This document shows positions 22,237-52,300 of a stretch of DNA of 64,000 nt, in pieces. Each line of letters begins with the position of its first letter. Position 1 is the first letter of the stretch. The notes beneath the pieces were generated by a model that saw nothing but the letters and a program-made list of their open reading frames with translations, had not been told where the DNA came from and did not search any database. The position numbers and the translations under genes were made by a program. Source of the DNA: Escherichia coli (GTDB lineage: Bacteria > Pseudomonadota > Gammaproteobacteria > Enterobacterales > Enterobacteriaceae); NCBI RefSeq assembly GCF_024223415.1, contig NZ_CP100500.1; one strand, 5' to 3'.

Positions 22237-22249
22237 ATAAATGGGATAT
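22237..22249. repeat. attL core: left copy of the 13-bp direct repeat ATAAATGGGATAT (includes the native allE ATG)
   Basis: Matches ATAAAAGGGATAT at 33890-33902 in 12 of 13 positions; the allE start codon plus 2 codons are followed by foreign sequence. Confidence 0.6.
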
Positions 22250-22322
22250 ATCTATAACTTATTTTCAATAAGGTATTGATTTAATTAAACAACTTACACT
22301 ACAAAAAGTGCCAAAAATCGCA

Positions 22323-22347
22323 AATTAACTACACCATTAACTACACC
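22323..22347. repeat. Tandem AATTAACTACACC / ATTAACTACACC repeats, left arm (candidate integrase arm-type sites)
   Basis: The same 25-bp tandem is present at 33743-33767 next to int; flanking ~60 bp is also similar at both ends. Confidence 0.5.
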
Positions 22348-22639
22348 GTTCGGCGCACTGTATGAAACAACGTGGAACAAATAGGCACAAGAAATATAAA
22401 GGCGGGTAATTTTAAGGGGGCGTTGCTGTCGATACGGGGATCCACATATCGAGATTGATACCTGGCTTTTTTTCCGGTTAACCTTTAATCAGGCTGGTGG
22501 GCTTTACCTGTTCTGTAGGAGTGGTCATTATGACCATTCAGCCAATGACCTTAATCAGAATTTTTCGCTAAAAAATGACGTTGGCCACGTCATCCGGAAA
22601 GCACAAAATCACGTCGATTTTTAATGGATGGTTAAACCG

Positions 22640-23000
22640 TCTTTTTGTCACGGTGTGTCACTGGTTGTCACGCTCTGTCACGATGTCCGGCCTCCTCACA
22701 TTGAGGATTGTGGAAGAATCAATGGGTTAGTCTTACTACCCAAACTACGGGTAGTTTCCGTAGTTTCATGGTCGAGTTGCAGATCTGCAACTCCCCCATC
22801 AACCACAGGCGAATTTCCGCCTTCGGTCATTCCTTAATCATCTGCGTAATCATAATGATTATTCAGCCACCTCAATTTTGAGGTTTGCTTTAAGTTCAGC
22901 GAGTTACCGCGCCGACTTCCTCAAATTGAGGTTTCCGAAAATATCAGTGGGTTAGCGATTAAGCTGACCATTAATTAAACTGCGAAAATTTCGTAGTTTG
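22640..23000. promoter_or_regulatory. Repeat-dense non-coding region; candidate packaging (cos-like) or TerS-binding region
   Basis: Four TGTCAC copies at exact 10-bp spacing (22646-22681); 20-bp perfect palindrome GAGTTGCAGATCTGCAACTC (22774-22793); three CCTCA-N3/4-TGAGG inverted repeats; no convincing ORF. Confidence 0.35.
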
Positions 23001-23087
23001 TGACTGTCTTTCAGGCAGCTTGTTATCAGTCCTCAGATGTGAGGGATGTAGCCAGCGCAATTTTGCGTTATCGGGAATATCAGCAAG

Positions 23088-23369
23088 TTACCGCCGTAAC
23101 CGTTCCGGCTTCTTCCACTGATAAGTGTTTTTCGCGCTCTCCTGATACATCGCCACGCGTCGACGGTATGCCAGCAACTCTAGTACTCTGATTCGTATGT
23201 CGCGCATATCCACGCCGTTAAGCTCAATACCATCACGGCGCATTACATCAGCAACAACACGCACGTAATTTTCGGCGATCACGCTGTCCGGCTGCGTGGC
23301 CTGTTCGTCATGCTGCTGGCTGATTCCGGTAACGCGGCGGATTAATCCCAGTAGTTCGGCTTCTGTCAT
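23088..23369 (-). CDS. Hypothetical protein (island, distal to head module)
   Basis: 93-aa ORF; no recognisable domain; coding status uncertain. Confidence 0.3.
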   Translation of the reverse strand: MTEAELLGLIRRVTGISQQHDEQATQPDSVIAENYVRVVADVMRRDGIELNGVDMRDIRIRVLELLAYRRRVAMYQESAKNTYQWKKPERLRR

Positions 23370-23423
23370 TGTGCCCCCATCGCTCTGATAGTCTGGTGTC
23401 GTCGGGTCCTTCTGGAATTATGG

Positions 23424-23468
23424 CCCGTTACGGGGCGTCGACCTCGCGGTTTTTCGCTATTTATGAGC
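23424..23468. repeat. Inverted repeat, left copy (flanks the Nu1-like gene cassette)
   Basis: Its reverse complement matches 24169-24212 in about 42 of 44 positions, including a perfect 25-bp core CGCGAGGTCGACGCCCCGTAACGGG. Confidence 0.7.
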
Positions 23469-23661
23469 TTTTTTAGAGGGAGGTTGTTGTTTAATTGTTT
23501 GTCATATCCATTTGATAACTAAGTAAAAATAAAGAGCAATACAACAACCTGATAGTGTTTTTTTGATGCTAAAAATAAAAAAATACTAATTGAATCAAAT
23601 AGTTTTAAAAAAATACGTGGTTGTTGTATTGCGTATTTGATGGCGTAACAGAAAGTGATTT

Positions 23662-24102
23662 TTAACTTTGCTGTTCTGTAACGACTGATTGTTCCATGCT
23701 GGCACGGCGAACGCTTACGGCATGACGCCACCCAGCCAGAAAGCCAGCCATTTTATTTCGTGCCTTGCTCACATCTTCCGGTGAATAGCCGTAAATATGC
23801 AAACCTTCATCAAATCGCTGTTCTGTTTCTTCACTGAAATACTCGTCGCGCTCTGACGCAATCAACCTGGCAACCATAATCTTTTCCAGTGCGCTGGTTT
23901 CTCCGTGGTACTCAATAGCATCAAGATGGCTTTTACCCATGCACCAGAATAATGTGTGTCCGATGTGATAACCGCCGGACTTTCCGCGATCCGCATCAAG
24001 ATATGGCATGCCCTGTTTGGTCCATGCGCGAATAGTGGTTCTGTTGACCTTGAAATGTTCTGCTATTTCCTGCTGACTCACAAAACAAGCTTTATCAATC
24101 AT
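23662..24102 (-). CDS. Terminase small subunit, lambda Nu1-like (HTH DNA-packaging protein)
   Basis: 146-aa ORF; N-terminus VSQQEIAEHFKVNRTTIRAWTKQGMPYLDADRGKSGG parallels lambda Nu1 (..IRTIQNWQEQGMPVLRGGGKG..). Confidence 0.7.
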   Translation of the reverse strand: MIDKACFVSQQEIAEHFKVNRTTIRAWTKQGMPYLDADRGKSGGYHIGHTLFWCMGKSHLDAIEYHGETSALEKIMVARLIASERDEYFSEETEQRFDEGLHIYGYSPEDVSKARNKMAGFLAGWRHAVSVRRASMEQSVVTEQQS

Positions 24103-24168
24103 AATGTTACCTTAATCATGCGATTAAATGTTAATCAAGTGGTGGTGGTGTCACCTTCACGGAAAAAC

Positions 24169-24212
24169 GTCATAAATAGCGAAAACGCGCGAGGTCGACG
24201 CCCCGTAACGGG
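24169..24212. repeat. Inverted repeat, right copy (flanks the Nu1-like gene cassette)
   Basis: Partner of 23424-23468 in inverted orientation; the two enclose ~700 bp containing only the Nu1-like gene and an AT-rich tract. Confidence 0.7.
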
Positions 24213-24233
24213 TCCACATGCCGGAAAGGACCC

Positions 24234-24258
24234 GCAAAAAAAGCCGGATTTCTCCGGC
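24234..24258 (-). terminator. Rho-independent terminator after orf137
   Basis: Minus-strand hairpin GCCGGAGAAATCCGGC followed by a T-run; nearly the same terminator recurs at 26509-26532. Confidence 0.5.
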
Positions 24259-24264
24259 CTTGTC

Positions 24265-24678
24265 TCAGATGGTTTTCAGTATGCGATCGATGTCGCCGTC
24301 ATCGCCCTGGTTTGTGCCATCGTATGCCATGCCAGCTGATACGGCTTTCGGGCTGTGCATGTCCATAAAGTTTTCAAAGGCTGAAGTAAGCTCTGGTGCA
24401 ACCTTCGGGCGTTCCTGCTCTATGGTCATGCTAAGGATGCTTTTAGCCGTACCAACATCGATACAAGGCACGTTAGCCATTGCACGTAACAGCGGCTGGT
24501 AGTCGTCAGATTCATGAAGCGCCATAATCGCATCAGCGCGCGGCTTGTCCTGTTCTTCCAGTTTGTTGAGTCGGTGTATGGCCTCGTAGGTTGATAAACC
24601 TCTGTCAGCCATTGCCCGCGCTTCGGCTTTAAATTTACTCGCCAGCGGTAGCTTCATGATACTTTCATTCGTTGCCAT
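24265..24678 (-). CDS. Hypothetical head-module protein (137 aa)
   Basis: ORF directly downstream of the D-like gene in the same operon; acidic C-terminus; no recognisable domain. Confidence 0.5.
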   Translation of the reverse strand: MATNESIMKLPLASKFKAEARAMADRGLSTYEAIHRLNKLEEQDKPRADAIMALHESDDYQPLLRAMANVPCIDVGTAKSILSMTIEQERPKVAPELTSAFENFMDMHSPKAVSAGMAYDGTNQGDDGDIDRILKTI

Positions 24679-24690
24679 CGTTCCCCCTGC

Positions 24691-25026
24691 TTATCGTGCC
24701 AGCGGCTGAACGGATACGCCGGAACCCGCAAAGGCGGCGCATTTTTTCGCATCGGTGTCGACGCTATCAGGCCAGTTAACGGCGGCAATATTGAATATCC
24801 CCGTTTTGTAACACTGTGCTGATTTCTGCTTTGACGTGTCCACGGGGTGCGAAGTCAGATAAACAGCTTTGCCAGATTCCTGACCATCCCACGCCTTAAA
24901 CTCGCCATTGTCTGCCAGCATCAGCGGGGTAAATTCCTGAATAACGCCAGCATCAGCGGCAAAATGTACCAGCGTCGTGGATACCTGCTGGCTGCCTGAA
25001 AATAACTCAATGTATGGAGCGTCCAT
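24691..25026 (-). CDS. Head decoration protein, lambda gpD-like
   Basis: 111-aa ORF with gpD-like motifs (TPLMLAD..AWDG..KTGIF..WP..AAFAGSG) and lambda D size. Confidence 0.75.
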   Translation of the reverse strand: MDAPYIELFSGSQQVSTTLVHFAADAGVIQEFTPLMLADNGEFKAWDGQESGKAVYLTSHPVDTSKQKSAQCYKTGIFNIAAVNWPDSVDTDAKKCAAFAGSGVSVQPLAR

Positions 25027-25037
25027 AGAATCCCCCG

Positions 25038-26093
25038 TTAAGCAATTTTGACGGTAACAAATTTGCGAATATCTGCCGGTACCGGCTGCGGTGCGCTGTG
25101 CGTCTGCACGTACTCAATCGCCGGATCGCCGTCCTCAATCCAGTTTTTCGGGTAGTACATGTTTTGCGTTGCGCCCGTTCTTACCGCTTCCTGATCCATA
25201 ATCGCACCATATGCCACCAGCCCTTTATTGTTGGTGTTACCCAGGACCAGCAAATCAGGCTCAAGGAAATATTTTTCGGTGCCGTCGCTGTCAGTGTATT
25301 TGCCGGAATAGACGATAAGGGCCAGATCACCAAGATAGCCTTTAAAGCTCACCACTTCGCCCAGGTTTTTACAGGCCAGCTCGGCGGCGGATTCTGACCC
25401 ACGGGAAAGATCGTACAGTTCACGGAATTTTTTAAAGCTGCGTAATGTGCGCCATACCTCACCGCCCATAATCATGACGTTGGCGGGGCAACCTGCCTGA
25501 TCAGCATAAAGCTCGATGTCATAGATTGGGTCGTGCATGTCTTTATCCTGCTGGGACCATTTTTTACCACTGGCCTGCTGTATGATGCAGTTTTCCGGTA
25601 TTTTCCAGTCGATTTCATAGCGTTCTATGCCTTCGCCCTCAATGATGTTTTTTCCGGTCGTTACCGCATTCACCGCCAGCCATTCAACACGCGCTTTAAT
25701 GGCGTTTACCTGGCGGCGCATGTTGCCAGTAATCAGGCGCATACGGCGATAGGTTGGGTCGTTAAGCTGTGCCGGATCTTCTCCAGCCATGCGCATGATG
25801 GTCTTTGTTGGATCGATTTCGTGCTTTGGCTTCATGTAGCCTGGTTTAATCGTGCTGGTTTCGTACCCTTTATCGCGCTGGACCTGACTACCCACCATAG
25901 GAGAACAGAACGCAGACATCGTAACCTCTTCAATGTCCAGGGTGTCCAGCATGATGTTTTGGGTGTTGAAGGTCGCCACGTTCGGGAAAAACAGCGTGGT
26001 AAACAGCGGACTAAATTTAAATTCCGAAATATCCCCGCGATTCAGGTACGCGAAAAGCTGGTTAGTTGTAAGTGCCGTTGCTTTGCCTGTCAT
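25038..26093 (-). CDS. Major capsid protein, lambda gpE family
   Basis: 351-aa ORF with many lambda gpE identities (PGYMKPKHE, DPTYRRMRLI, VVSFKGYLGDLALIVYSGKY, VLGNT, YPKNW..GDPA, SAP). Confidence 0.85.
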   Translation of the reverse strand: MTGKATALTTNQLFAYLNRGDISEFKFSPLFTTLFFPNVATFNTQNIMLDTLDIEEVTMSAFCSPMVGSQVQRDKGYETSTIKPGYMKPKHEIDPTKTIMRMAGEDPAQLNDPTYRRMRLITGNMRRQVNAIKARVEWLAVNAVTTGKNIIEGEGIERYEIDWKIPENCIIQQASGKKWSQQDKDMHDPIYDIELYADQAGCPANVMIMGGEVWRTLRSFKKFRELYDLSRGSESAAELACKNLGEVVSFKGYLGDLALIVYSGKYTDSDGTEKYFLEPDLLVLGNTNNKGLVAYGAIMDQEAVRTGATQNMYYPKNWIEDGDPAIEYVQTHSAPQPVPADIRKFVTVKIA

Positions 26094-26299
26094 TATTCAC
26101 CTCCGTGAACCTGATTGATACCCAGCGCCGCACGTAAATAGGTGCGCACCTGCCAGCCTGTTGACGGCTCAACCATCGCCAGCGGATCAAGTCCTGCCGC
26201 AATGCCTGCTTTTACATTCTGCTGGTGGCGTTCCTTGAGCGCCTCCACGATGTCGGGGCTTATGTAGACCGTCACCCCGCCTTTTTTCTCTTCTGCCAT
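26093..26299 (-). CDS. Hypothetical protein translationally coupled to the capsid gene (68 aa)
   Basis: ORF whose stop overlaps the capsid gene start; no recognisable domain. Confidence 0.45.
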   Translation of the reverse strand: MAEEKKGGVTVYISPDIVEALKERHQQNVKAGIAAGLDPLAMVEPSTGWQVRTYLRAALGINQVHGGE

Positions 26300-26508
26300 A
26301 GTCAGAAATTCCTCTTTGACTTAAAAAATCATAACTGGATGTTCATCCAGTCCTGATTATAATCATGATTGCATTTTGTGCAATAATGTTGAGTTGTGTT
26401 GCAAATTATGAAATGATTATCCCGATCATGTGTGTCAGTGCACCATAAAAAACCTCGTATACAAAAGCCCGATAAGCCCCCTGTGACCTTATCGGGCTTT
26501 TTTTAGGC

Positions 26509-26532
26509 GTAAAAAAGCCGGATTGCTCCGGC
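26509..26532 (-). terminator. Rho-independent terminator after the PerC-like gene
   Basis: Minus-strand hairpin GCCGGAGCAATCCGGC followed by a T-run. Confidence 0.5.
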
Positions 26533-26539
26533 TGTGTGC

Positions 26540-26812
26540 TCACTTCTGCGGGTAGTTGCGCCATATTGCTTTGCCAATACCAGCTATCCCCATTTGTTTT
26601 TCAGTGCGATTAACTGACCTTTTCAGAGCGCCTAAATCATCCGGCGGCTCCGGTGGCCTCTGTGCCTTCCGTGAACATTCCAGCCGTCGCATTGCCACCT
26701 GTGCGCGTTCCTTGTCTGTCTCCACCAGCATCATCACTTCACCCCATCGCGCGGCCGCCCTCCGGTAAAATCCTTTCGCCTCCAGTTCCTCCGCTATCCG
26801 GTCATGTACCAT
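26540..26812 (-). CDS. PerC-family transcriptional regulator-like protein
   Basis: ORF 26540..26932; likely start MVHDRIAEELEAKGFYRRAAARWGEVMMLV, resembling PerC-family proteins; assignment from memory of the family. Confidence 0.5.
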   Translation of the reverse strand: MVHDRIAEELEAKGFYRRAAARWGEVMMLVETDKERAQVAMRRLECSRKAQRPPEPPDDLGALKRSVNRTEKQMGIAGIGKAIWRNYPQK

Positions 26813-26822
26813 CGTCACCCCC

Positions 26823-27233
26823 TCAGAACGGAATATCATCACCGTAAGGGTCATCGCCTCCCGCTGGTGGCTGATTACCCTGTGTGCCTGTGGTTTTGCG
26901 TCTGTTCCCGCCAGGACGTGCCGCACGGGCACTGATTACGCTGTCTGCGATGACCTGCCAGCCCTGCCGCGTTTCGCCGTTCTGGCCTGTCCACTGGCTT
27001 ACCTGCATGTTACCCGCCACGCTCACCAGTTCGCCTTTGTGGTGTCTGGCCAGTGCGTCGGCCTGTCTGCCAAACGCCAGGACGGATAACCACATCGTCG
27101 CCGTTCCGTCATCTGCCTGGCTGCATGGCAGGGGAACCGCCATACTCGCCATCGCCATTTGTGTCCCTTTGCTGGTCTGTTTTGTCTGCGGGTCGTCCAC
27201 CAGCCGCCCGTAAGCCGCTATCTGTGCTGTCAT
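26823..27233 (-). CDS. Single-stranded DNA-binding protein (SSB)
   Basis: 136-aa ORF with OB-fold-like N-terminus, Gly/Pro-rich linker and the canonical acidic SSB tail ...GDDIPF. Confidence 0.8.
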   Translation of the reverse strand: MTAQIAAYGRLVDDPQTKQTSKGTQMAMASMAVPLPCSQADDGTATMWLSVLAFGRQADALARHHKGELVSVAGNMQVSQWTGQNGETRQGWQVIADSVISARAARPGGNRRKTTGTQGNQPPAGGDDPYGDDIPF

Positions 27234-27487
27234 GCTGTCTGCTCTCCGGTTTTAACATTGATGGTTGTCACCTGTTCCGCTCCGGCAATCTCCCGCTCTG
27301 TCAGCGTGGCAAAGTTTGCCGCCGTCGTTGTCATGAATGCGCTTATCAGTTCGGGATGTGCTTTCGCGTATCCTTCCCCCGTGTTGCGGTCGATGATTTT
27401 TATCGCCACCCTCAGCCAGTGCTCTGTAAGGTCAATGGCGCGGTTATGTGATTTCTTCTGATTGTTAAATTTTTCTGATGTGTGCAT
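27230..27487 (-). CDS. Hypothetical protein (85 aa) upstream of ssb
   Basis: ORF overlapping the ssb start by 4 nt; no recognisable domain. Confidence 0.45.
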   Translation of the reverse strand: MHTSEKFNNQKKSHNRAIDLTEHWLRVAIKIIDRNTGEGYAKAHPELISAFMTTTAANFATLTEREIAGAEQVTTINVKTGEQTA

Positions 27488-27529
27488 TTTTATTTTTACC
27501 CCCTCGTTTAAAAAGTTTTGAGTTGTGGT

Positions 27530-27770
27530 GCACCTCCTCTACCTCTCTACACAATCATCTTTCAGGTCAGTAATGGCGCGGCTTTCAGCGGGGTAGAGGG
27601 CTTTTTTGGCCCTCTACCCGCCATCTACCACCCCCTCACAAATGCCCTGAATTATGGTAGAGGGTGTAGAGGGCTTTTAAGTACCTTCTACCTGCCATCC
27701 ACCCAATCTATCCACATGAAATATATGTAATTATTTTCTTAAGGTAGAAGGGGTAGAGGGCTTTTGTCTA
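27530..27770. repeat. Iteron array; candidate replication origin of the island
   Basis: At least six copies or variants of GGTAGAGGG(C)TTTT and its complement CCCTCTACC in about 240 bp of non-coding DNA directly 3' of the primase gene. Confidence 0.6.
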
Positions 27771-27773
27771 AAA

Positions 27774-29522
27774 CTATAAAAACGCGTCGCAGTCGTCTGT
27801 TGTTGTCACGTTGGTTTGCGTAAACCCTTTAATCCTGCGCGTTATATATTCATGACCGTAAACTTTCGCCGCTGGCTTCATGGCCTTGCTGAACTCAGCC
27901 ACGTTCAGCGGTTTGCTCCTGCCTGCATACGCCATAAACGCCAGATAGACGCGGTAAAGGCTGTTTCTGGTCGTGTACTTCACTGAATCGCCACCGCCGC
28001 CCATCATCAGGCCACGTGCTTCCTCCAGAAAATTCAGGAACTGGCAAAACTCAATAACCGGATCCGTCTGTTGCTTTATTGCCAGAGCTTCATCACCGTC
28101 TCGCTGTTCAATGAGTAAAGCCCGTGCCTTTTCAGGGTCGGCAAAGTTCGCCAGCAAGCGGCGGATAATGACAGGGATTTCAGCCGCGATCTTTTCCGGT
28201 AGCTCCCTGTCTTTTTCTGCCTCGCTTACGATGTTATCGAACCGGAATATCACCCGACGACGTGACACGCCTCCTGCCCGTTCGGTGAATATCATCGGGT
28301 TATTATTGGTTGCCAGCACAACCGCCCTGATTACCGCCGTGAATCGCTTTTCATATTTCGGGTTGATTTCCACGGGGTCGCCGCCCGTGATTTTCTTGAT
28401 GCCCGTTCCTTCGCCTGTATATTTCGGCTGGTCTGCCAGGACAATAAGCCTACTCCCGACAACCTGCGCACGCCCACCAGCATCATCAAGCGATGTCATC
28501 TCAGCGCTTACCGTGTTCTGTTTCCCTGCCAGAAGGCTGGCTATGTGTGTGAATGTACTTTTACCGCTCCCGCCGTCTCCGGTGGCCTCAATAAACATCT
28601 GCCAGTCGTACCGGTTCGCCATAATCATGTACAGCGCGGCACATATACGCATCATCTTGCGCGGGTCTTTTCCGGCAGCGTGATCAAGCCATTTATGAAA
28701 GTTTGGCGCGTTGTCGCGGATATTCTCACCTGGTACTGGCGGCGTGTACTCAATGCCGTTGTGTGTGGTGATCCAGTTCTCCGGCGTGTGCGGGGAAAAT
28801 TCCCCCGTTTTCAGGTCAAGCGCACCATTGGCGAACGGCAGCAAATCGCCGGACGGCTCGCCCATTGGTTCGGCAATAACTTTTAACGCTTCCACGGCGT
28901 TACTGATTACGCGCTTGCTGAAAGTGGCCCTGTGCTCTGAATAGATCGCCACCATTTCGCGGCTCAGTTCCATTGTGCTGACCGGACACCATACCCCGCC
29001 GCGCCATACGTGAACGATTTCACTTTCCAGATGCACACAAACGCCATCAAATCGACCAGCAAGCATCTGTGCGCGCTCACTGTCTGCCATTTGTGCCAGT
29101 TGCGTATTTTTCTGCTCCGGCATGGTAAGCCCTGCGGCAATATTTTCACGCTCAGCATTCAGATAGCGCCGCCAGTTTTCACACTTCTGACCGTGCATTC
29201 CTTCAGAGTAAAAATTCGCATCCTGAATATCTGCCGCCGCCAGCTTCTGACCAATCTTTTTGGTCTCCACTAAATCCAGTTCTCCGGCCTGGTACAGCCT
29301 TACGCGTTTTTTTCCATCCGGAACAATTTTCAGCGCATCAAGTTCAGCAAGCTGATTTGGCCCAAGCCACACAGGCGGCACATTATCGCCGGATGCGGGA
29401 CCGTCCTTCTCCTGCCACTGTTGTGCATGCGACCAGGCATCACTACCCGCAAAGATAATTACCTCTGTGTCTTTGTGTTTTATTCCGCGTGGCTGTTTTT
29501 TTACGTTCGGTGCCAGTTTCAT
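27774..29522 (-). CDS. Phage/plasmid primase-helicase (P4 alpha family; D5_N plus P-loop NTPase)
   Basis: 582-aa ORF; Walker A GDGGSGKST; architecture and size typical of satellite or PICI Pri-Rep proteins. Confidence 0.85.
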   Translation of the reverse strand: MKLAPNVKKQPRGIKHKDTEVIIFAGSDAWSHAQQWQEKDGPASGDNVPPVWLGPNQLAELDALKIVPDGKKRVRLYQAGELDLVETKKIGQKLAAADIQDANFYSEGMHGQKCENWRRYLNAERENIAAGLTMPEQKNTQLAQMADSERAQMLAGRFDGVCVHLESEIVHVWRGGVWCPVSTMELSREMVAIYSEHRATFSKRVISNAVEALKVIAEPMGEPSGDLLPFANGALDLKTGEFSPHTPENWITTHNGIEYTPPVPGENIRDNAPNFHKWLDHAAGKDPRKMMRICAALYMIMANRYDWQMFIEATGDGGSGKSTFTHIASLLAGKQNTVSAEMTSLDDAGGRAQVVGSRLIVLADQPKYTGEGTGIKKITGGDPVEINPKYEKRFTAVIRAVVLATNNNPMIFTERAGGVSRRRVIFRFDNIVSEAEKDRELPEKIAAEIPVIIRRLLANFADPEKARALLIEQRDGDEALAIKQQTDPVIEFCQFLNFLEEARGLMMGGGGDSVKYTTRNSLYRVYLAFMAYAGRSKPLNVAEFSKAMKPAAKVYGHEYITRRIKGFTQTNVTTTDDCDAFL

Positions 29523-29818
29523 TTTTTACCCCTGAATACGTTAAGCATCTTTTTTATTTCCTGAATATTGGCGCGTGCTTTCTCCCTGCTGGTTGGTTTA
29601 CTGCGGGGCGCTGCCTGTACCAGAGAAAAATCACGCCGGAACTGATAAACAGGCATCACGCAATCATATTCGTAGCCTTCACGGCGGTAAGTGATGCGCC
29701 GTTCCTCCACGCCTTTAATCGTTACCGTGCCGCCGTACTGGTCGCGGTAAATATCGCCGTTCATAAATTCAGGCCGAGCGGGGCCGCTGGCATTAACGCC
29801 AGTATTTTTCATTCCCAT
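29519..29818 (-). CDS. Hypothetical protein (99 aa), translationally coupled to primase
   Basis: Stop overlaps the primase start by 4 nt; basic protein of unknown function. Confidence 0.5.
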   Translation of the reverse strand: MGMKNTGVNASGPARPEFMNGDIYRDQYGGTVTIKGVEERRITYRREGYEYDCVMPVYQFRRDFSLVQAAPRSKPTSREKARANIQEIKKMLNVFRGKK

Positions 29819-29822
29819 ATAA

Positions 29823-30065
29823 TTAAATTCCGTTTGTGTGGTGTTTTAATTCGTCAATTTTTTCTAATGCTTTGTTTATCTTGCTGGTGGAAATATCCAG
29901 CAATTCAGAAATAGCAAATATAAGTCTTGCCGTTGATTCATCTCTTTCGTTGTTTGACAGCAATTGAAACCACACGTTTGTAATTTCAATTGCCGAATTA
30001 TTATAGGTTATTGCACTGTTCATGTATTCCGACACCTCTGCAAGCGAAAGTTTATTATTCTCCAT
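29823..30065 (-). CDS. Hypothetical protein (80 aa), AT-rich accessory gene
   Basis: Locally AT-rich ORF within the minus-strand operon. Confidence 0.4.
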   Translation of the reverse strand: MENNKLSLAEVSEYMNSAITYNNSAIEITNVWFQLLSNNERDESTARLIFAISELLDISTSKINKALEKIDELKHHTNGI

Positions 30066-30246
30066 AACGTTCTACCCTCTCATCAATTAACCACAGTGCA
30101 ACACTTCCTGACAGTCTTGCCAGAAGGCCAGCTAATGCGGATATATCATCATCATTTAATTTATTAGGGTACGCTTCAAGAAGTCTGCAAATAATTTCGG
30201 TTTGGTGGGCGCGTTCAGCGGCTTCGTGTAATGTAATTTCCTTCAT
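30055..30246 (-). CDS. Hypothetical protein (63 aa)
   Basis: ORF overlapping its neighbours by a few nt (operon). Confidence 0.4.
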   Translation of the reverse strand: MKEITLHEAAERAHQTEIICRLLEAYPNKLNDDDISALAGLLARLSGSVALWLIDERVERYGE

Positions 30247-30431
30247 TAATGCACCTCTTTTAATTCATACACTGCTGAAATAATGACTTGTGATAAGCCA
30301 TATTCTGATGATTCGCTTCTCACCGCAGCAATAGCCGTCTGAACATTAACAGCCTTCACATTCTGAGCGATACCAATTGTGTGGCCTAGTGGGTTAACAG
30401 CTCGGGCAAATACACGGAAGGTTTTAAGCAT
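30246..30431 (-). CDS. Hypothetical protein (61 aa)
   Basis: ORF overlapping its neighbours (operon). Confidence 0.4.
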   Translation of the reverse strand: MLKTFRVFARAVNPLGHTIGIAQNVKAVNVQTAIAAVRSESSEYGLSQVIISAVYELKEVH

Positions 30432-30789
30432 GGCGCACCCCCTGAATAACCTGATATCCGCAACTGGTCAGCAATTCGATAAATTCCGGCAGAGTGCCAA
30501 AACAGCAATCAGTGCGTAGCTGTTCGCAGGATACCTCAACGCCGTTTTCGTAATGGCTCACTATGCGCCCGGTAAAATGCGGATCATCATCGTGATGGCA
30601 CGTTGACGGTTTCATCAGCCGCGCGCGTTCCGCCAGTTCCAGCAATGCTTCAACGCTTCCGGCAATTGCACCATCCGGCAGGTGATAATTACTTACTACG
30701 CGTCCATTCTCTACATTGACCAGTAGCTGTCCGGTAAATTTCTCACGAAACTGAACGCGGTTAAGATCGGTAAGTGACAGGTTAATCAT
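30424..30789 (-). CDS. Hypothetical Cys/His-containing protein (about 122 aa)
   Basis: ORF track 30424..30831; ATG at 30789 overlaps the upstream gene stop (ATGATTAA); contains CHHDDDPH...C..CC, a possible metal site. Confidence 0.45.
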   Translation of the reverse strand: MINLSLTDLNRVQFREKFTGQLLVNVENGRVVSNYHLPDGAIAGSVEALLELAERARLMKPSTCHHDDDPHFTGRIVSHYENGVEVSCEQLRTDCCFGTLPEFIELLTSCGYQVIQGVRHA

Positions 30790-30979
30790 GGCACACCTCC
30801 TGACGAATACGGGCGGCGAATACAGCGACACAACCGGACGGGCAACGGTTACGCGCTTCGCGTTCTGTCCAGGCGGTCACGTGGATAATTTGAGATTCTC
30901 CGGCACTCAGTGCCAGAAAACGCCACACAAAGGCGGTTTGTGTGTGCGCAAGGCGTGGGGTATGCTGTGTTCCAGCCAT
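30782..30979 (-). CDS. Small protein resembling P4 Icd-like / Ash-family (host cell-division inhibitor-like)
   Basis: 65-aa ORF MAGTQHTPRLAHTQTAFVWRFLALSAGESQIIHVTAWTEREARNRC...; SD GAGGT 7 nt upstream; first gene of the leftward operon; family assignment tentative. Confidence 0.4.
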   Translation of the reverse strand: MAGTQHTPRLAHTQTAFVWRFLALSAGESQIIHVTAWTEREARNRCPSGCVAVFAARIRQEVCHD

Positions 30980-31069
30980 AATCGTTACCTCAATTAATGG
31001 TTTGGTTAGAAGCCCGTTGGTGTTCATAGCGCCAGCGGGCTTTGTCTTTTCATCGATTACCTCAATAAA

Positions 31070-31151
31070 GGTGTCAGCCACTATACTAGTAACAGGTGTC
31101 AGCCACGTCAATAGTGTTTTTCCATTTTCTTGTGTGTATACTGTCAGCCAC
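31070..31151. promoter_or_regulatory. Three direct repeats of (G)GTGTCAGCCAC in the divergent promoter region (candidate operators)
   Basis: Copies at about 31070-31081, 31095-31106 and 31141-31151, between the leftward icd-like operon and the rightward RHH gene; a TATACT -10-like hexamer abuts copy 3. Confidence 0.5.
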
Positions 31152-31172
31152 CTAATAACAAGGAAATCAGAT

Positions 31173-31352
31173 ATGGCAACGAAAGCAGTTAATGGAAAAT
31201 CCAAAAAACTTGAGGCACGAGTCCCCCATGCAATAGCTGACGCTTTAGAAAATTTAAAGGAAGAAGGCGAAAGCACTGGGCAATTTATCGTTTCGGCACT
31301 TGAAGGCGAGATCAAACGCCGCCAGCGCCGGAAGGCCAAAGAATCAGAATAA
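31173..31352 (+). CDS. Small RHH/Arc-like DNA-binding protein; candidate island repressor
   Basis: 59-aa ORF MATKAVNGKSKKLEARVPHAIADALENLKEEGESTGQFIVSALEGEIKRRQ...; SD AAGGA; transcribed divergently from the replication operon. Confidence 0.55.
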   Translation: MATKAVNGKSKKLEARVPHAIADALENLKEEGESTGQFIVSALEGEIKRRQRRKAKESE

Positions 31353-31400
31353 TCACTATCAGCGCCGTGGTGTGAGGTACTGCGGCGCATTGTTTTAAAG

Positions 31401-31601
31401 GTGATAATTATGAATAACCAAGAACTACAAAATAAAGCATTATCAATTATCATGCGCCAGCGTGAGAAAACCCGCAGGGAAATAAATAAGGCATTAACCC
31501 GCACTGAAAATCTTAAAGTTCCTGATAAGTTCGCCCTTGATCCTTTTGTCGAGAAATACCCTCGGCGCTTAAAAGCAAACAAAAACCGCCCACCTGGCTG
31601 A
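31401..31601 (+). CDS. Hypothetical protein (66 aa) downstream of the RHH gene
   Basis: Short ORF on the same strand as the RHH gene, before a plus-strand terminator. Confidence 0.3.
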   Translation: MIIMNNQELQNKALSIIMRQREKTRREINKALTRTENLKVPDKFALDPFVEKYPRRLKANKNRPPG

Positions 31602-31758
31602 CAATCCACCAGCAAGCCAGGACACTGATCACATTGGCCACCGTGACAGGTGGCCTTTTCTTTGCCCGTTATCCGGCAATTGTGGCGCTTCGCCACACGG
31701 TTGATATAATCCCACTGCTCATATTCATTTTTTGCGCAGTAGGTTAATTGTTCAGAAA

Positions 31759-31787
31759 GGCGGCTCCTTATCGGGGCCGCTTTTTTT
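31759..31787 (+). terminator. Rho-independent terminator ending the rightward RHH transcription unit
   Basis: Hairpin GGCGGCTCC-TTATC-GGGGCCGC followed by TTTTTTT. Confidence 0.45.
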
Positions 31788-31928
31788 ATGTCTGAAAAAC
31801 CGCGATTTTGTTGTTTTTCAGTTTCACAAGGCCGAACGAAGCCCCGCCCCTGTTCGGGCGTATATCCAGTCTTCATGGTTAAATCTCTGTATTAGTGGAT
31901 GGGTGGCGGCTGTGTGCCGCCAGTCTTT

Positions 31929-32117
31929 TTAGTGAACTGCCTCGCAGCTTTCCTTCCATGCCAGAACTTCGGATAAAGACCAGCCAACGGAACGACCGCC
32001 CAGCTTACGCCGTGATGGGAATTGTCCGGCCTTTTCCAGGCGGTAGCGGCATGAGCGGCTAAGCCCTGTTAGCTTTTCGCATTCTTTTTCACGTATAAAC
32101 CGATCAGTGCTTAACAC
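31929..32117 (-). CDS. alpA: AlpA-family phage regulatory protein (excisionase/activator-like)
   Basis: 62-aa ORF ...KLTGLSRSCRYRLEKAGQFPSRRKLGGRSVGWSLSEVLAWKES, the AlpA HTH signature; adjacent to int. Confidence 0.8.
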   Translation of the reverse strand: MLSTDRFIREKECEKLTGLSRSCRYRLEKAGQFPSRRKLGGRSVGWSLSEVLAWKESCEAVH

Positions 32118-32409
32118 TATTGCCCCCTTTCGTTTCTTAAAGAGTTATTTCGTGTTCTATTGCGTTGGTATGTGTCTGATTGTGTCAGGGTGATTCAGAG
32201 TTGGCAAATGTTGGTGGCGGGTATTTTACAGAAACGGGGTTATTTTAATAAAAAACATTTTAATTCAGTATTATGCAAAGGCATAAAATCTCGTTTTATG
32301 CCTTTTTTCTCACTATTTAAAGCGTTATTCGCTAATGTATAAAAAACCAGTTGAGCATTAAAAATCAGCAACTTATAAATCTGTATACTTTTTGGCCTCT
32401 TGTTCGTGG

Positions 32410-32443
32410 TTGTTTCACGTTGTTGCGTATTGTTTCACGTTGT
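32410..32443. repeat. Two direct repeats TTGTTTCACGTTGT between int and alpA
   Basis: Identical 14-mers at about 32410-32423 and 32430-32443 in the int-alpA intergenic region. Confidence 0.4.
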
Positions 32444-32491
32444 ATCTGTGCACTTATCCAGTATGCGCATACTGAAAAAACACGAAAAAAA

Positions 32492-33742
32492 TTATTTTCT
32501 TCTGGTTACTGGTAGCGTGGTTACGTTTTCATGTGCTCCCGCCAGTATCTCCAACCGCTCCACCCACATATCCAGCGCATTGCGTTTCGCATCCAGATAA
32601 CGGGAATGATTATAAACTCGCTGCATTCCTGGCATCTGGTGGCCTGTAAGCTGCTCCACGACGTGAGGATCCACGCCTAAATCGTTCAGCATCGTTGTAA
32701 AGGTGCGCCGGATGTCATGCAGTGACCAGTGAGGGTGTTTAAGCCTCCTGTGCGCTAATCTTCCATACTGCGATACGCTGGCCTCCTGTTTCACTTCCCC
32801 CAGCAATAAGCCCGTGTGCCTGTTCTGCTCCACCAGCTGCGTGACGAACGGCAGTATCGCTTCCGGTATGGGCCGGAATATGGCTACCTTCGTTTTGCTG
32901 TGCTCCTTCGGAACGGTCCATAGCATTTCGGTAAAATCCCACTCCCCGATCTCCGATAGCCTCAGTTCTACTGTCCTGGCTCCGAAGACAATCAGGAGGC
33001 GGATTAGTGCGACGTAGTAAGGGGAAAATATTTTTTTGTCCAGTGCCTGCAATAATTCGCCAAGTTCTTTGTTACTTAAGACACGCTGACTTATATCCGG
33101 TTTTTTCCCAACGTCAGCAACACTCATATCATCAAGAACGTTGCTGATTGCATAGCGCCGCTTCCGGCAGAACTTAAGCGCCTGTTTGCATGTCTGTAGC
33201 AGGAATCCGGCGGAAACAGGGGCTTGCTTTGCCACCCGATCAAAACAGGCCAGCCAGTGCCGTAGCTCGCATTTATCCAGCGGCATAGCACCAATCTGCT
33301 GTATTACGTGATTATTAAGTCGCCTTTTCAGGGCGATATAATCCACGCGGTTTTCCTTTACGTAATACTCAAGCCAGTAGGTAAGCGCATCGCCAACCGT
33401 TACAGGCTTTAACGCTTCCTGTACGGTGTAATTCATCTCATGACGTGGATTTTTCCCCTCAGCCAGCCATGCGCGGCACTGTGCGGCTTTTTCCCTGGCT
33501 GCTTTCAGGCTCAGATCAGGATAATTTCCCAGCTTAATCCGTTCCGGTCGTGCTCCCCTTCCCGTTCCGGCCCTGTAGGTGAAATACCAGGTTAAAAGGC
33601 CGCTGGTTGAATGCCTGACGGTCAGGTTTCCACCGTCATTAAGAAAGACTGTTTTTTGGGCGGGTGTGCCGTTGATTTTCCTTAGCTGTGTATCGCTCAG
33701 TTTGTTAAGTGCTCTGCGCATAATTTTGATTCCGGTCATCAC
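32492..33742 (-). CDS. int: Tyrosine recombinase/integrase (P4-like, DUF4102 N-terminus)
   Basis: 416-aa ORF; N-terminus ...LNDGGNLTVRHSTSG...WYFTYR; C-terminal catalytic region HDIRRTFTT...VYNHSRY; lies at the island edge next to attR. Confidence 0.9.
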   Translation of the reverse strand: MMTGIKIMRRALNKLSDTQLRKINGTPAQKTVFLNDGGNLTVRHSTSGLLTWYFTYRAGTGRGARPERIKLGNYPDLSLKAAREKAAQCRAWLAEGKNPRHEMNYTVQEALKPVTVGDALTYWLEYYVKENRVDYIALKRRLNNHVIQQIGAMPLDKCELRHWLACFDRVAKQAPVSAGFLLQTCKQALKFCRKRRYAISNVLDDMSVADVGKKPDISQRVLSNKELGELLQALDKKIFSPYYVALIRLLIVFGARTVELRLSEIGEWDFTEMLWTVPKEHSKTKVAIFRPIPEAILPFVTQLVEQNRHTGLLLGEVKQEASVSQYGRLAHRRLKHPHWSLHDIRRTFTTMLNDLGVDPHVVEQLTGHQMPGMQRVYNHSRYLDAKRNALDMWVERLEILAGAHENVTTLPVTRRK

Positions 33743-33767
33743 AATTAACTACACCATTAACTACACC
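33743..33767. repeat. Tandem AATTAACTACACC / ATTAACTACACC repeats, right arm (candidate arm-type sites)
   Basis: Identical to 22323-22347; located immediately upstream of the int start. Confidence 0.5.
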
Positions 33768-33889
33768 GATCGTTGCACAAAGGGCTACAACGTGAAACAA
33801 GCTGGAACAAGAAAAATCACAAATTTGTTTATAATCAAAAACATAATGCACAACCTGAAACATTATGAAACGGCAAAAAACACTAATTG

Positions 33890-33902
33890 ATAAAAGGGAT
33901 AT
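33890..33902. repeat. attR core: right copy of the 13-bp direct repeat (ATAAAAGGGATAT)
   Basis: 12 of 13 match to attL; a TAA stop and AAG replace the native ATG start of allE. Confidence 0.6.
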
Positions 33903-38852: not shown

Positions 38853-40307
38853 TTAACCTATGGTTTTTTGCTCTCCTGTTTTTTCTGCTGTTGTACGTTT
38901 CTTTAATAAGGCGTAGGCCGCAAAGGCGACGATGACGCCGACAAACCATGAAACACGCGATAACGGTTCCATAAAGGGAATAAACTTACCGCCAAGAGAT
39001 AAAATAACGGCCACCAGAGTTACTGAAAACGCGGTGAGGTTAAAACCGTTATCGTAATATTTATAATCGCCAGGTGCGGTGTACAGTTCATCAAGATTAA
39101 TTTGCCCACGCATCACCACAAAATAATGCGCCATCATGACACCAATTACCGGACCCAGCATTCCGCCGATGATATCGAGGAACAGATAAATACTGTCCTG
39201 ATTTTCCATTAATTTCCACGGGCAGATCAGCAGGCTGATAATACTGGCAATCAGTACGCCGTTTTTATAGGTCAGTTTTGTCGGTGCAATGGCAGCAATC
39301 TAATAACCGGCCGGAATAATATTACCGGTGGCGTTAGTGGAAATGGTCGTCATCAGAATAACCAGTACCGCAAAGAACGAGGCAAACAGGCTGTCCCAAC
39401 GCTGAACAATATCCAGCACGTTCCAGGTGTCAGCGCCGTAGTGAATACTGGCTCCGGCAATAATACATACCCCAGCGACCGCAAACAGAATATAGGCCAC
39501 AACTAAACCCAGCGTTTGCCCCAGCGCTTGCTCACGAAACGAGTGGGCGTTTTGCGTAAAGTCGGATGCGCTCACCGCCGGTGCCGCCCAGACCGCAACT
39601 ACCGCATTAATCACTACCAGGAACAAGAATCCACTGTTTTCTGCTTTCTGAATACCGCTCGGAATGTAGTCAAAGATTGGACCGAGCCCGACCAGCGAAA
39701 TCGCCCAAATCGCCATACCGCCGAAAACGATATAGATGCACGGGTTAAGAATAGCAGTGAATTTATTTAAAACTTTGCCACCGCCAAAACCTATACCAAC
39801 GTTGACCAGCCAGAAGAGTAAGAAAGTAATTAAGCCCGGTAGAGAAAGGCCTAACAGAGTGAAATCACCACCGAGAGTCAAAAATCCCGGCCAGATTTTG
39901 CCAATCAGAATCAAGCAGGCCAGTGACCCCGCGTAACATTGCAGGCCAAACCACATAATGGCAGCAATACCGCCTCTTAATAATCCGGGAAACAGTGCGC
40001 CACGTACGCCGTAAGAAGCACGCAGGATCATGGCAAACGGTACGCCGTATTTACTGCCCGCAGCGCCGTTTAATACCATTACCGCGGCAATGAAAAAGGC
40101 GCTGAGGATAATTGCCAGCATAATACTAAAGGTAGACAAGCCGAGAATAAAAAAGCCGCCGACCATCACATAATTGGGAACGTTATGAACCGAACCCATC
40201 CATAAGGTAAAATAGTTAAATGTTTTCCAGGTCCGCTGGCTTTGCGTTTTCGGCAATAGATCTTCGCTATAGCCGCGTTGCTGGAATAGTTTTCTCTGAT
40301 GTTCCAT
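38853..40307 (-). pseudogene. ybbW: Allantoin permease gene with an in-frame TAG stop (39300-39302)
   Basis: ORFs 39300..40307 (335 aa) and 38853..39209 share one frame; the only interruption is one TAG; 335 + 1 + 30 + 118 codons equals the 484 expected for YbbW/AllW. Confidence 0.75.
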
Positions 40308-40475: not shown

Positions 40476-41354
40476 TCAGGCCAGTTTATGGTTAGCCATT
40501 AATTCCAGCGCCTGCACTAACGCAGAGTGATCCAACTGGCTGCCACCGTTTGCCGCACAGGTATTAAATAGCTCCTGGCAGGTCGCAGTGTTTGGCAGGT
40601 TCAGCGCCAGTGCTTTCGCACTTTGCAGTGCCTGGTTGAGATCTTTCTGGTGCAGCGCAATTTTGAAACCTGGATTAAAGGTGCGTTTAATCATGCGCTC
40701 ACCGTGAACTTCCAGAATACGTGAGGAAGCAAAGCCGCCCATCAGCGCCTGGCGCACGCGTACCGGGTCTGCACCGGCTTTTGAAGCAAACAGCAGAGCT
40801 TCAGAGACCGCTTCAATATTGAGCGCCACAATAATCTGATTTGCCACTTTGCAGGTTTGTCCGTCGCCGTTACCGCCCACAAGGGTGATATTTTTACCGA
40901 GCAGTTCAAATAGCGGTTTAACACGTTCAAATACCGCTTCGTCACCGCCAACCATAATTGACAACGTACCTTCACGCGCGCCGATTTCGCCGCCGGAGAC
41001 TGGCGCATCGAGATAATCACCGCCCAGTTCATTCACCTGACGAGCGAAACGTTTAGTTTCAATCGGGGAAATGGAGCTCATATCAACAATGGTTTTGCCC
41101 TTCAGCGAGGCTTTGGTACAACCATTTTCACCGAACAGAACTTCTTCAACCTGTGGTGTATCCGGCACCATAATAAAAATGATGTCCGATGCTTCCGTTA
41201 CCTGGTGCGCAGTTTCAACACTGACGGCACCCAGTGACAGTAATTCATCAGCAACCGGACCAATGGTTGTGACATGCAGTTGATGACCGGCACGCGCCAG
41301 ATTAATGGCCATCGGTGTACCCATAATGCCTAAGCCAATAAATCCCAGTTTCAT
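40476..41354 (-). CDS. glxR: Tartronate semialdehyde reductase
   Basis: 292-aa ORF MKLGFIGLGIMGTPMAINL...; NAD-binding Rossmann N-terminus. Confidence 0.9.
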   Translation of the reverse strand: MKLGFIGLGIMGTPMAINLARAGHQLHVTTIGPVADELLSLGAVSVETAHQVTEASDIIFIMVPDTPQVEEVLFGENGCTKASLKGKTIVDMSSISPIETKRFARQVNELGGDYLDAPVSGGEIGAREGTLSIMVGGDEAVFERVKPLFELLGKNITLVGGNGDGQTCKVANQIIVALNIEAVSEALLFASKAGADPVRVRQALMGGFASSRILEVHGERMIKRTFNPGFKIALHQKDLNQALQSAKALALNLPNTATCQELFNTCAANGGSQLDHSALVQALELMANHKLA

Positions 41355-49039: not shown

Positions 49040-49300
49040 TTAGGGAAAAATAAGAAAAAAATAATCATCTTCTACATTTGTGTATATTGATATATCCACC
49101 GCTACGTGCGGAAAAAAATCTGGGAGCCATGTAAAAACTCCATCATTTTCTGGTATTGCCATATAGTTTATGTAATGTTTACTTACAAGAGATTCATCTT
49201 TGTATAAATAAAGATAAGTAATTACGCATAAAACAACAATGATTATAATAGCAAAAATAAATATTATCATCTTTGATAGATTACTTGAGATAGCCAGCAT
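49040..49300 (-). CDS. Small membrane protein; candidate Rhs immunity protein
   Basis: 86-aa ORF with one strong TM helix, AT-rich, directly downstream of and overlapping the rhs 3' end. Confidence 0.4.
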
Positions 49301-52300
49301 CTTGTAAAGCCTTTATCGTTTTTTTATGCTCTGGATTAATATAATCACTACATCTATCTGAGCAATCTGTTGTTGATGGACATGTCAACCCATGGTCATT
49401 TACAGCCAAGTCTTTTTTATTATCTTCAATCATTTCAGAATGGGATAGCTTTACTTTTCTGCCGTACATACCGAACAGATTTAACCCGTAATCTCTAATC
49501 TCTTTTTCATAACCCAGCCCTTTCGCCGATCGGCTAACACCAGCGTCATTTAATTTAGACACTCGACAAAATGCCATACAATGGAAAAATTGATCAGTCC
49601 CACCTAAATTTAATCTCTTCATATCTTCATAAGTATCAGATAATATATCCCATGCTCTTTGATGGTTTAGTTGATCTTTTCTTCTTATTAGCGCTACATC
49701 TGCGGGACTTAACCCTAATGGATCAATACCATTCACCGGATTCAGCGGATACGCATACAGACTCCATCCCCCCTCCAGCCCTATCGGGTCCTGAGTGATA
49801 TACCGCCCCTGCAACGGATCGTAGTACCGGTTCCGGTTGTAGTACAGCCCCGACTCCTTATCATACTGCTGCCCCGGCAGCCGGTACGGCTGGTGCAGGT
49901 GATGCGGGTTCTCCTCATTAAGCTGGTTGCCCCATTCATCATATTCCGCGCTCCACGCCGTATTGCCGTCTTCACTGATAAGCGCCAGCGGCAGGCCCCG
50001 GTAGTCACAGTGATAAAGATGTATTTTTCGCTCAGGCAAATAAACCGGCTCTATCTGTGCCGCCAGCCGCTCCACCGTCAGCCCGCACTGCGCAAGCCAC
50101 TGGCGGCTTTCACTGCTCACGCAGTTTGCCCGGATTTCCCCCTCCAGCCTGTCCAGCAGCCCCACCAGTTCAGCCGGGAACACCACACCGTGGCCGTCTT
50201 CGCTCCCTTCCTGCTGCAGCTTCTCCGCCAGGCTGCGGCACTGCGCTTTCTCCCGTTCACCGTTGTCTGTTTCGATGCGGATGAGCGGCGCGAAGCTCCC
50301 CGGCTGGTATACCGTCTGGATACGCGTGGTGTCGGTCTGTACCGTCGTCAGCCGGTCGCCGTCCCATCCGTACCACGTCACCTCCGGTTTACGCGACAGC
50401 GACATCCATCCCGTCAGGTCACGCTCCCGCCGCCATACCCGTTTCGCCATTCGCCGTCCCAGCGGGTCACAGAGGTAGCGGCTCTCGACCAGTGGCTCGC
50501 CATGCTGTATCCGCGTGTGGAACACCAGGCGGTGCTGGCTGTCGTAGTGATAGTGGTGGGTCCGCTCGTCGTCCGTCCGTATCACACCCGCCGGGATGCG
50601 GTCCGTCTTCTCCGTCAGCCTGCCGTATTCATCGTGGCGGTAGACATAGTGCGCATCCTCCGCGATGCGGTTATCCGGCCACACTGTGAGTGTACTGTCC
50701 GGGTGCAGCTCCGGGTCCGGCAGCCGGTTTCCCGCCGGGTCGGTCGCATACGGGATGCGGATGTCCAGGTCCGGTGCGAGGGTGCGCACGCTCTCCAGCC
50801 TGCCCGTGGCGCTGTAGCCGTATTCCCGCGTCTGCCGGGGGGCGCTGATGCGCACCAGGTCGCCGTTGTCACTCCACCCGTAGTCACGGTCATATACCAG
50901 GCTGTTCAGGTGCTGGCTCTGTAACCGGCCTGCGGGGGTGTATGTGTTGGTCAGTTCATATGCGGCATTACTGCCTGCCATGCTGCCGAAGCTGCGCACC
51001 GTCTCCCGGTGCAGGCGGTCGCGCGTGAACTCCAGCAGCGGCGTCCCGCCCAGCTTCATTCCCGCCAGGTAACCGCTGCCATACGTCAGCCACTCCACCG
51101 GCGGCAGGCTGTCCGGCGTGACGCGGTTTGCCAGCCCCTGTTCGTTGTATGCGTGTTTCGTCTCATGCTGCCACAGCAGTTCCCCCGTCTCCGGGTTCTC
51201 CACCGTCTGGCGTTCGCCGGTCAGGCGGCCCTTATCGTCGTAGCCGTAGTGGGCAGCGACACGGTGGCCTTCACTGAGATGGCTGATGTCTGTCAGCCAG
51301 CCGTGGCCGTCATACTGCCACTGCTCTGCCGGTTCACCGTTTACCGTGCGGTGAGTGATACAGTCCGATTCATCGTAGTACCAGAGGGTGACAAGCCCCT
51401 CATCTTCACTCTGCGTGAGTTTTCCTGTCAGGTCATAATGATAACGCAGCGTCCGCCCGTCAAAGCCGCCCTGCTGTACCAGGCGGTCCAGCGCATCGTA
51501 ACTGAAATCACTGTGGCTGCCGTTCTCGTTAGTCAGACTGATGACACGTCCGGCAACATCGTACTCCATACTGCGCGTCAGCCCGCCCTGCGTGGTGCTG
51601 ACCGCCTTTCCCCACGCATCGTACTGTGTCTCGCTCCGGTTGCCGTCCGGGGTGATAACGGCAGTCAGGTCGCCTGCGGCGTTGTACTCATACCGCGTTT
51701 CATGGCCCTGTGCGTCTTTCACCGAGATTAACCGGCCACGGTTGTCATAGCGGCGGTAAAGGCTGATGCCTTCCTCGCGGTGGACCGCCGTCATCTGGCC
51801 GAAGCGGTCGTATTCATAGCGGGTCTGGTAGCCCGAGCAGTCGGTGAACGCCAGCAACTGACCGTAGCGGCTCCAGGTCATCTGCCGGGTGCTGCCCGTC
51901 GCATCTGTTGTCGTGGCCGGTAATTCACTGTGCGGATTATCATAAGCATGCCGGATGACGTCCCCGCTGCGCGATGTCTCCGATACCAGCCTGCCCGGTT
52001 CATCATATGCCCGGCGGCTCTCCAGCCCGTCCGGGGACACCACCGCCGTCAGCTGGTTCCCGTCGTTATAGTAAAATTTCGTCTCCCGCCCGTCCGGTGT
52101 GGTGATGTCCGTGATATCGCCGGACACCACATTCAGACCGTACTCTGTCCGCCGTCCCGCCGCGTCCGTCTGCGCCGTGAGCCTTCCTGCCGCGTCATAC
52201 CCGCTGTGCGTGACGCTGCCGTCCGCCAGTTCTTTTTTCACCACCCGCTTCAGCCCGGCCCCGCCTTCTGTATGCAGCACCTCACGCCGGTTCAGGCTAT

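Follow-up and report, generated by a model that had tools for sequence, protein, structure and literature searches.

The gene for the allantoin permease AllW is interrupted by a single in-frame amber codon in the Escherichia coli DNA analyzed here, a stretch of 64,000 nucleotides hereafter called the window. We assign a probability of about 90% to the reading that the interruption is real and heritable and makes allW a loss-of-function allele, that it is recent, that it belongs to one narrow E. coli clone, and that its product stops at the end of transmembrane helix 8 (TMH8) of the transporter.

The minus-strand translation of window positions 38853-40307 comprises 485 codons, with an internal stop at codon 336 in addition to the terminal stop. 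The premature TAG stands in the context GGT TAT TAG ATT, and the N-terminal 335-aa ORF spans 39300-40307 when its stop is included. The initial annotation had added two same-frame ORFs, the stop and 30 intervening codons up to 484 codons, and the recount (335 + 1 + 30 + 118 = 484) gave the same sum. The comparison with the intact allW of strain SCU-316 (WP_000401139.1, 484 aa) showed 1454/1455 identical nucleotides, the sole difference being a C-to-T change at gene nucleotide 1006, which corresponds to window 39302 (G to A on the plus strand). The amber is thus the only lesion, as had been claimed, and the gene is the ybbW allantoin permease (now allW) that the initial annotation had named. 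This degree of homology to an intact allW also indicates that the split ORFs are not a chance arrangement. The intact alleles nearest to the window allW (those of SCU-316, KV7 and NCTC10444) each differ from it at one base only, and the allele of O157:H7 TR01 shows four differences besides the amber, all four of them synonymous. A match to the 1,455-nt allW stretch was detected in 5,336 of the 5,426 complete E. coli genomes, with 99.9% identity for the best whole-gene matches. The position of allW between glxR and allB is syntenic with the annotated SCU-316 and KV7 genomes and agrees with the known operon gcl-hyi-glxR-allW-allB-ybbY-glxK (PMC10163214). The features of the locus and its surroundings are listed in the table, together with the differences that are private to the window.

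Features of the allW locus, the neighboring island and the differences private to the window (window coordinates)
Feature	Position	Strand	Basis
allW (ybbW) gene, 484 codons plus stop, one internal amber	38853..40307	-	Translation, identity to SCU-316, NF047713
Premature TAG, codon 336, ancestral CAG (Gln)	39300..39302	-	Comparison with SCU-316, five nearest genomes
N-terminal ORF, 335 codons, residues 1-335, approximately TMH1 to TMH8	39303..40307	-	ORF list, alignment to Mhp1
30 in-frame codons (residues 337-366) from the stop to the next ATG, most of predicted TMH9	39210..39299	-	Translation, hydropathy
C-terminal ORF, Met367-Gly484, 118 codons plus stop, predicted TMH10-12	38853..39209	-	ORF list, hydropathy
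allB (allantoinase), next operon gene, intact, 453 aa	37432..38793	-	ORF list, syntenic annotation
glxR, upstream operon gene, intact, clone-private L241Q at 40633	40476..41354	-	ORF list, relatives
Phage-satellite-like island, 11.6 kb, between allC and allE	22250..33889	.	Absent from KV7, PHROGs
allE start ATG to AAG at the right-hand island repeat	33894..33896	+	Relatives
ylbF T119N	16305		Private versus all five relatives
allE start ATG to AAG	33895		Private versus all five relatives
allW Q336*	39302		Private versus all five relatives
glxR L241Q	40633		Private versus all five relatives
allR P190L	44361		Private versus all five relatives
A8 run 1 nt shorter	49055-49062		Private versus all five relatives
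Synonymous change in Rhs core gene	52575		Private versus all five relatives
ybbP A395V	55181		Private versus all five relatives
Synonymous change in tesA	57434		Private versus all five relatives

The 484-aa protein, conceptually repaired with Gln at position 336, scored 899.7 bits against the NCBIfam model NF047713 ("allantoin transporter"), for which the equivalog cut-off is 800 bits, again in agreement with the name given to the gene. The 335-aa ORF (642.8 bits) and the 118-aa ORF (177.8 bits) both scored below this cut-off. The uninterrupted 12-helix ORF required of an NCS1/LeuT-fold transporter is absent because of the stop at codon 336. Intact orthologues have a sense codon at this position, and no second lesion is needed to account for the split, as expected of a nonsense pseudogene. 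The locus descends from allW, yet it encodes no protein qualifying for the NF047713 family (NCS1, TIGR00800). In GenBank, both fragments, the adjacent SRA14802.1 and SRA14801.1, carry the name "putative allantoin permease".

The window is near-identical over about 45 kb to the genomes of KV7, NCTC10444, SCU-316, O78 strain 3 and NCTC9112, and all five carry G at window 39302, that is, a sense codon. The alignment to intact orthologues, a check that had been suggested together with the initial annotation, identified the ancestral codon as CAG (Gln336). An 81-nt query centered on the TAG was found in 5,270 complete E. coli genomes and was never 100% identical in any of them. The private substitutions that set the window apart from the five near-identical genomes number about 8 over 45 kb, and so few changes on a short terminal branch indicate that the amber is recent relative to E. 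coli diversity as a whole. The CAG ancestor, the single lesion and the short branch together support the recent nonsense mutation that the initial annotation had put forward. We propose that a C-to-T transition converted CAG (Gln336) into the amber TAG on the branch to one narrow E. coli clone, and that the amber allele would then have been passed on as this clone diversified. For another of the private changes, P190L in AllR, the effect is not predictable from conservation, since position 190 is non-conserved and occupied by Val and Arg in IclR paralogues. Part of the Rhs core gene (window about 51640-53270) shows dozens of differences in NCTC9112, whereas the other four relatives are near-identical to the window there; the divergence in NCTC9112 is consistent with recombination or with variability of this part of the Rhs element.

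The initial annotation had left a sequencing error as its alternative, in which case the true codon would be CAG and allW intact. Further carriers of the TAG were sought by exact-sequence look-up of the 335-aa product, the evidence being assemblies and contigs. The same TAG was found in the NCBI draft GCA_900482235.1, on contig UDHK01000042.1, which is 21 kb long, is identical to the window across the genes of the all (allantoin) cluster and differs from it only in a patch of the island primase gene and in the A-run at 49055-49062. It was also found in Logan contigs of ERR3437659 (and three similar places), of SRR19977205 (and five similar places; 7,008 nt, 100% identical to the window) and of SRR7874689, the last contig being common to four samples. 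The TAG carriers represent at least three haplotypes: one that is window-like, an ERR3437659 type with W354R in mnmH, and an SRR7874689 type with A14T and W212* (TGG to TAG) in allS and a 1-nt deletion at codon 83 of hyi. Outside the cluster, the clone-private A395V form of YbbP was present in GCA_900482235.1, in GCA_018050105.1 (and four similar places) and on a contig common to eight samples, and two flanks from the clone, one of 11,191 nt and the other of 8,912 nt, were 100% identical to the window. Some of the TAG-carrying runs could be repeat sequencing of related isolates. The window assembly itself may not be error-free, as it has a private homopolymer difference: the run at 49055-49062 is A7 in the window and A8 in the five relatives and in all other TAG carriers. 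The shortening to A7 frameshifts a 163-aa ORF (PF26610, YbbD_head) that closely follows the Rhs core gene, and because it is private to this one assembly, a homopolymer sequencing error is plausible at that site. The TAG, however, is a substitution and not a homopolymer indel, and its recurrence in an independent NCBI draft and in contigs of several unrelated runs, including the identical 7,008-nt contig, refutes the alternative of a sequencing or assembly error, to which we give next to no weight. The amber reflects a true mutation that has been passed on within a single narrow E. coli clone and is not unique to this genome.

Two groups of look-up results were rejected. Eight contigs retrieved with the 335-aa product belonged to other lineages (96.8-98.9% identical) and ended at codon 335, and the next base, where visible, was C; they were not counted as TAG carriers. 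Seven metagenome or MAG scaffolds retrieved with the 118-aa product had no N-terminal gene called, and showed a 100-nt break (locus 9817-9916) with 55-nt overlapping ends that correspond to allW nt 1015-1069. They were read as probably carrying a scaffolding gap rather than a lesion, and strain variation flanking the 55-mer probably split the assembly graph. In gene-call tables, this artefact mimics a disrupted gene.

The position of the amber in the transporter fold was deduced from Mhp1, the hydantoin permease, to which AllW is homologous over residues 19-438 (PDB 2jln, E = 2.5e-24). The TMH8 motif S323-T324-N325...N329 of AllW aligns opposite S312-T313-N314...N318 of Mhp1, and Gln336 of AllW lies opposite Thr325, so that residue 335 is opposite Tyr324, six residues past the Asn318 equivalent. 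Past residue 336, the hydropathy analysis showed four hydrophobic segments, at about 345-369, 372-399, 420-447 and 449-470. The 12 helices of Mhp1 form a bundle (TMH1, 2, 6 and 7), a hash motif (TMH3, 4, 8 and 9), the gates TMH5 and TMH10, and the C-terminal pair TMH11-12; TMH10 folds over the substrate, whose hydantoin ring forms a hydrogen bond with Asn318 (PMC4195764). Mapped onto this architecture, translation of the amber allele would end at the C-terminal end of TMH8 of the 12-helix NCS1 (LeuT-fold) transporter. The 335-residue product would retain the ligand and ion-site residues of TMH1-8, with TMH9, which belongs to the hash, the extracellular gate TMH10 and the pair TMH11-12 predicted to be absent, so that the transport cycle could not be completed. 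The 118-codon ORF, whose ATG is preceded by a weak GGA motif only, starts at the end of TMH9, and both pieces together would therefore still be without residues 337-366 and would not rebuild the fold. K-12 no longer takes up allantoin once allW is deleted, and AllW depends for its stability on AllB, its reported binding partner (PMC10163214). Given the K-12 deletion phenotype, we infer that the clone is expected to have lost AllW-dependent allantoin uptake and, with it, the ability to draw nitrogen from external allantoin under anaerobic conditions.

Functional full-length AllW would still be made if the amber were decoded, either by a supE-like tRNA-Gln(CUA) suppressor or by efficient read-through. 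Gln, the ancestral residue, is also what supE-type suppressors insert at UAG, and background read-through of UAG is largely due to near-cognate tRNA-Gln; in addition, the stop is followed by A, and TAG-A is not known as one of the strongest termination contexts. Read-through by tRNA-Gln would accordingly regenerate a little wild-type AllW, and the amber allele may be leaky rather than null. Amber suppressors are, however, rare in natural isolates, and without a suppressor read-through usually stays far under 1%. The 64-kb window contains no suppressor tRNA; its only tRNA is a tRNA-Arg with anticodon TCT at 1537-1613 (minus strand), which we take to be argU. A suppressor may lie elsewhere in the genome. 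A conserved recoding site is not indicated, since the relatives carry CAG and the TAG is confined to one clone, being absent at this site from all complete genomes that contain this stretch. Moreover, in a sub-clade of the TAG carriers other genes of this regulon have been inactivated as well, as would be expected of a pathway on which selection has ceased to act. Taken together, we consider it very unlikely that functional AllW is still produced by decoding of the amber, and truncation at codon 336 remains the preferred reading. Downstream of the stop, scans for promoter-like and terminator-like sequences gave counts near background (5 versus 3.6 and 5 versus 2.5, respectively, in the shuffle expectation), and a C/G-composition scan of the same region detected no C-rich, G-poor rut-like stretch past the amber. 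The stop may exert polarity on allB-ybbY-glxK.

A second amber in allW, W364* (TGG to TAG), was identified in three contigs, L019 (9992-9994), L027 and L028, which are 99.0%, 97.3% and 97.3% identical, respectively, to the SCU-316 allW. This allele yields a 363-aa ORF and the same 118-aa ORF. Like Q336*, it is a TAG in the same gene and cuts before TMH10; unlike Q336*, it affects codon 364 and lies on allW backgrounds that are 1-2.7% divergent from the window allele, indicating that W364* is a separate event. Among the matches listed for the W364* context in complete genomes, full-length matches reached at most 98.8% identity, and one further record fell in the band of at least 99%. Ninety of the 5,426 complete genomes gave no match to allW, up to 32 more had less than 80% of the gene covered, and allW was of intact length (at least 80% covered) in at least 5,304. 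These results show that allW and its pathway have repeatedly been lost in E. coli, though most strains keep them.

The same cluster is also altered by an insertion at allE. Direct repeats of 13 bp border the island between allC and allE: ATAAATGGGATAT occupies 22237-22249 and ATAAAAGGGATAT occupies 33890-33902. The island is absent from the five nearest genomes, and its site is occupied in 12 of the 5,426 complete E. coli genomes. In the comparison with PHROGs, its ORFs matched an integrase, a repressor-like protein, a primase, a major head protein, a head decoration protein, a protease-related protein and a small-terminase-like protein. PICI and capsid-forming PICI (cfPICI) phage satellites are defined by an integrase, a regulator and a primase together with a capsid/packaging module, without tail or lysis genes, and cfPICI additionally require terL, portal and a head-tail adaptor/connector (PMC10085698). 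The matches come from the part of the ORFs that was searched, and no ORF of terL or portal size was seen in the 11.6-kb island. On the basis of these matches, the island is phage-satellite-like, putatively of PICI or cfPICI type.

The island separates allE from the allD-allC promoter. A stop codon lies directly upstream of the AAG that replaces the allE start, and the first canonical in-frame start is the GTG at 33954 (241 aa). In AR_0085 and in L029, allE of the same configuration is annotated with 247 aa (start corresponding to window 33936), compared with 261 aa normally. In AR_0085, the island site is occupied and allE is annotated 14 codons shorter, whereas allW is intact, indicating that the island and the amber are independent events.

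Further decay of the regulon was observed in the SRR7874689-type sub-clade (four samples), in which the three additional changes, two of them inactivating, fall in the same 15 kb, at window-equivalent positions 41984, 45758 and 46353. A stepwise dismantling of the allantoin/glyoxylate regulon within one clone can be envisaged, with the island at allE and Q336* followed by allS W212* and the hyi frameshift, which would parallel host-restricted Salmonella and mark a niche shift. We put this forward tentatively and think it rather less probable than not; the stepwise decay is a hint from small numbers and is not established.

The loss could instead be adaptive, the inactivation of allW and later of allS and hyi having been selected in the niche of the clone, for example because the cost of the regulon is saved or a toxic substrate of AllW is excluded. 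The lesions do recur, as the independent W364* in three contigs indicates. In the sub-clade, a span of 15 kb contains both allS W212* and the hyi frameshift, compared with an invariant flank of 9-11 kb, although the samples sharing that flank may exclude the sub-clade. Inside the all cluster, each of the four coding changes private to the clone is protein-altering. In Salmonella, pseudogenes of the allantoin pathway, ybbW among them, likewise occur in invasive Typhimurium ST313 lineage II and in Typhi, Paratyphi A and Gallinarum (PMC4372345). The numbers, however, are tiny: four of four fits unselected mutation, since random mutation by itself yields about three non-synonymous changes in every four. 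The gene is, moreover, usually retained among complete genomes, and relaxed selection alone predicts the same pattern. Selection for the loss is therefore considered unlikely. The clustering of protein-altering changes (4/4 inside the all cluster, 1/3 outside) was likewise discarded as evidence for relaxed selection, the counts being too small. Overall, the pattern resembles the ordinary decay of a dispensable pathway, which may have been stepwise.

The mechanism is an ordinary one: a nonsense mutation has turned the gene of a dispensable nutrient transporter into a pseudogene. Annotation of the locus should read allW pseudogene rather than two "putative allantoin permease" genes, and metabolic models of the clone should drop the use of external allantoin. 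The T at gene position 1006 provides a clean single-nucleotide marker of the clone. Loss of this transporter recurs in host-adapted Salmonella, and the allele adds one well-documented case from E. coli.

Compared with known systems, the window locus occupies the same operon position as the intact E. coli AllW/YbbW (NF047713; TC 2.A.39.3.8), and differs from it in its premature stop at codon 336 and in the loss of the last four helices. The archetype of the NCS1 family, Mhp1 of Microbacterium liquefaciens (2jln, 4d1a), shares the S-T-N...N motif of TMH8 with AllW; substrate and organism differ, and Mhp1 was used here to place the truncation before TMH9. In Salmonella Typhimurium ST313 lineage II, an invasive lineage, ybbW, allB and gcl are pseudogenes, and Typhi, Paratyphi A and Gallinarum likewise carry inactivated allantoin genes (PMC4372345). 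The decay in the E. coli clone is much less extensive, and the likeness is one of resemblance only, with no link to host restriction or invasiveness seen here; as in the Salmonella decay of ybbW/allP, allB and gcl, point lesions within a clone have struck the orthologous transporter and its neighbors.
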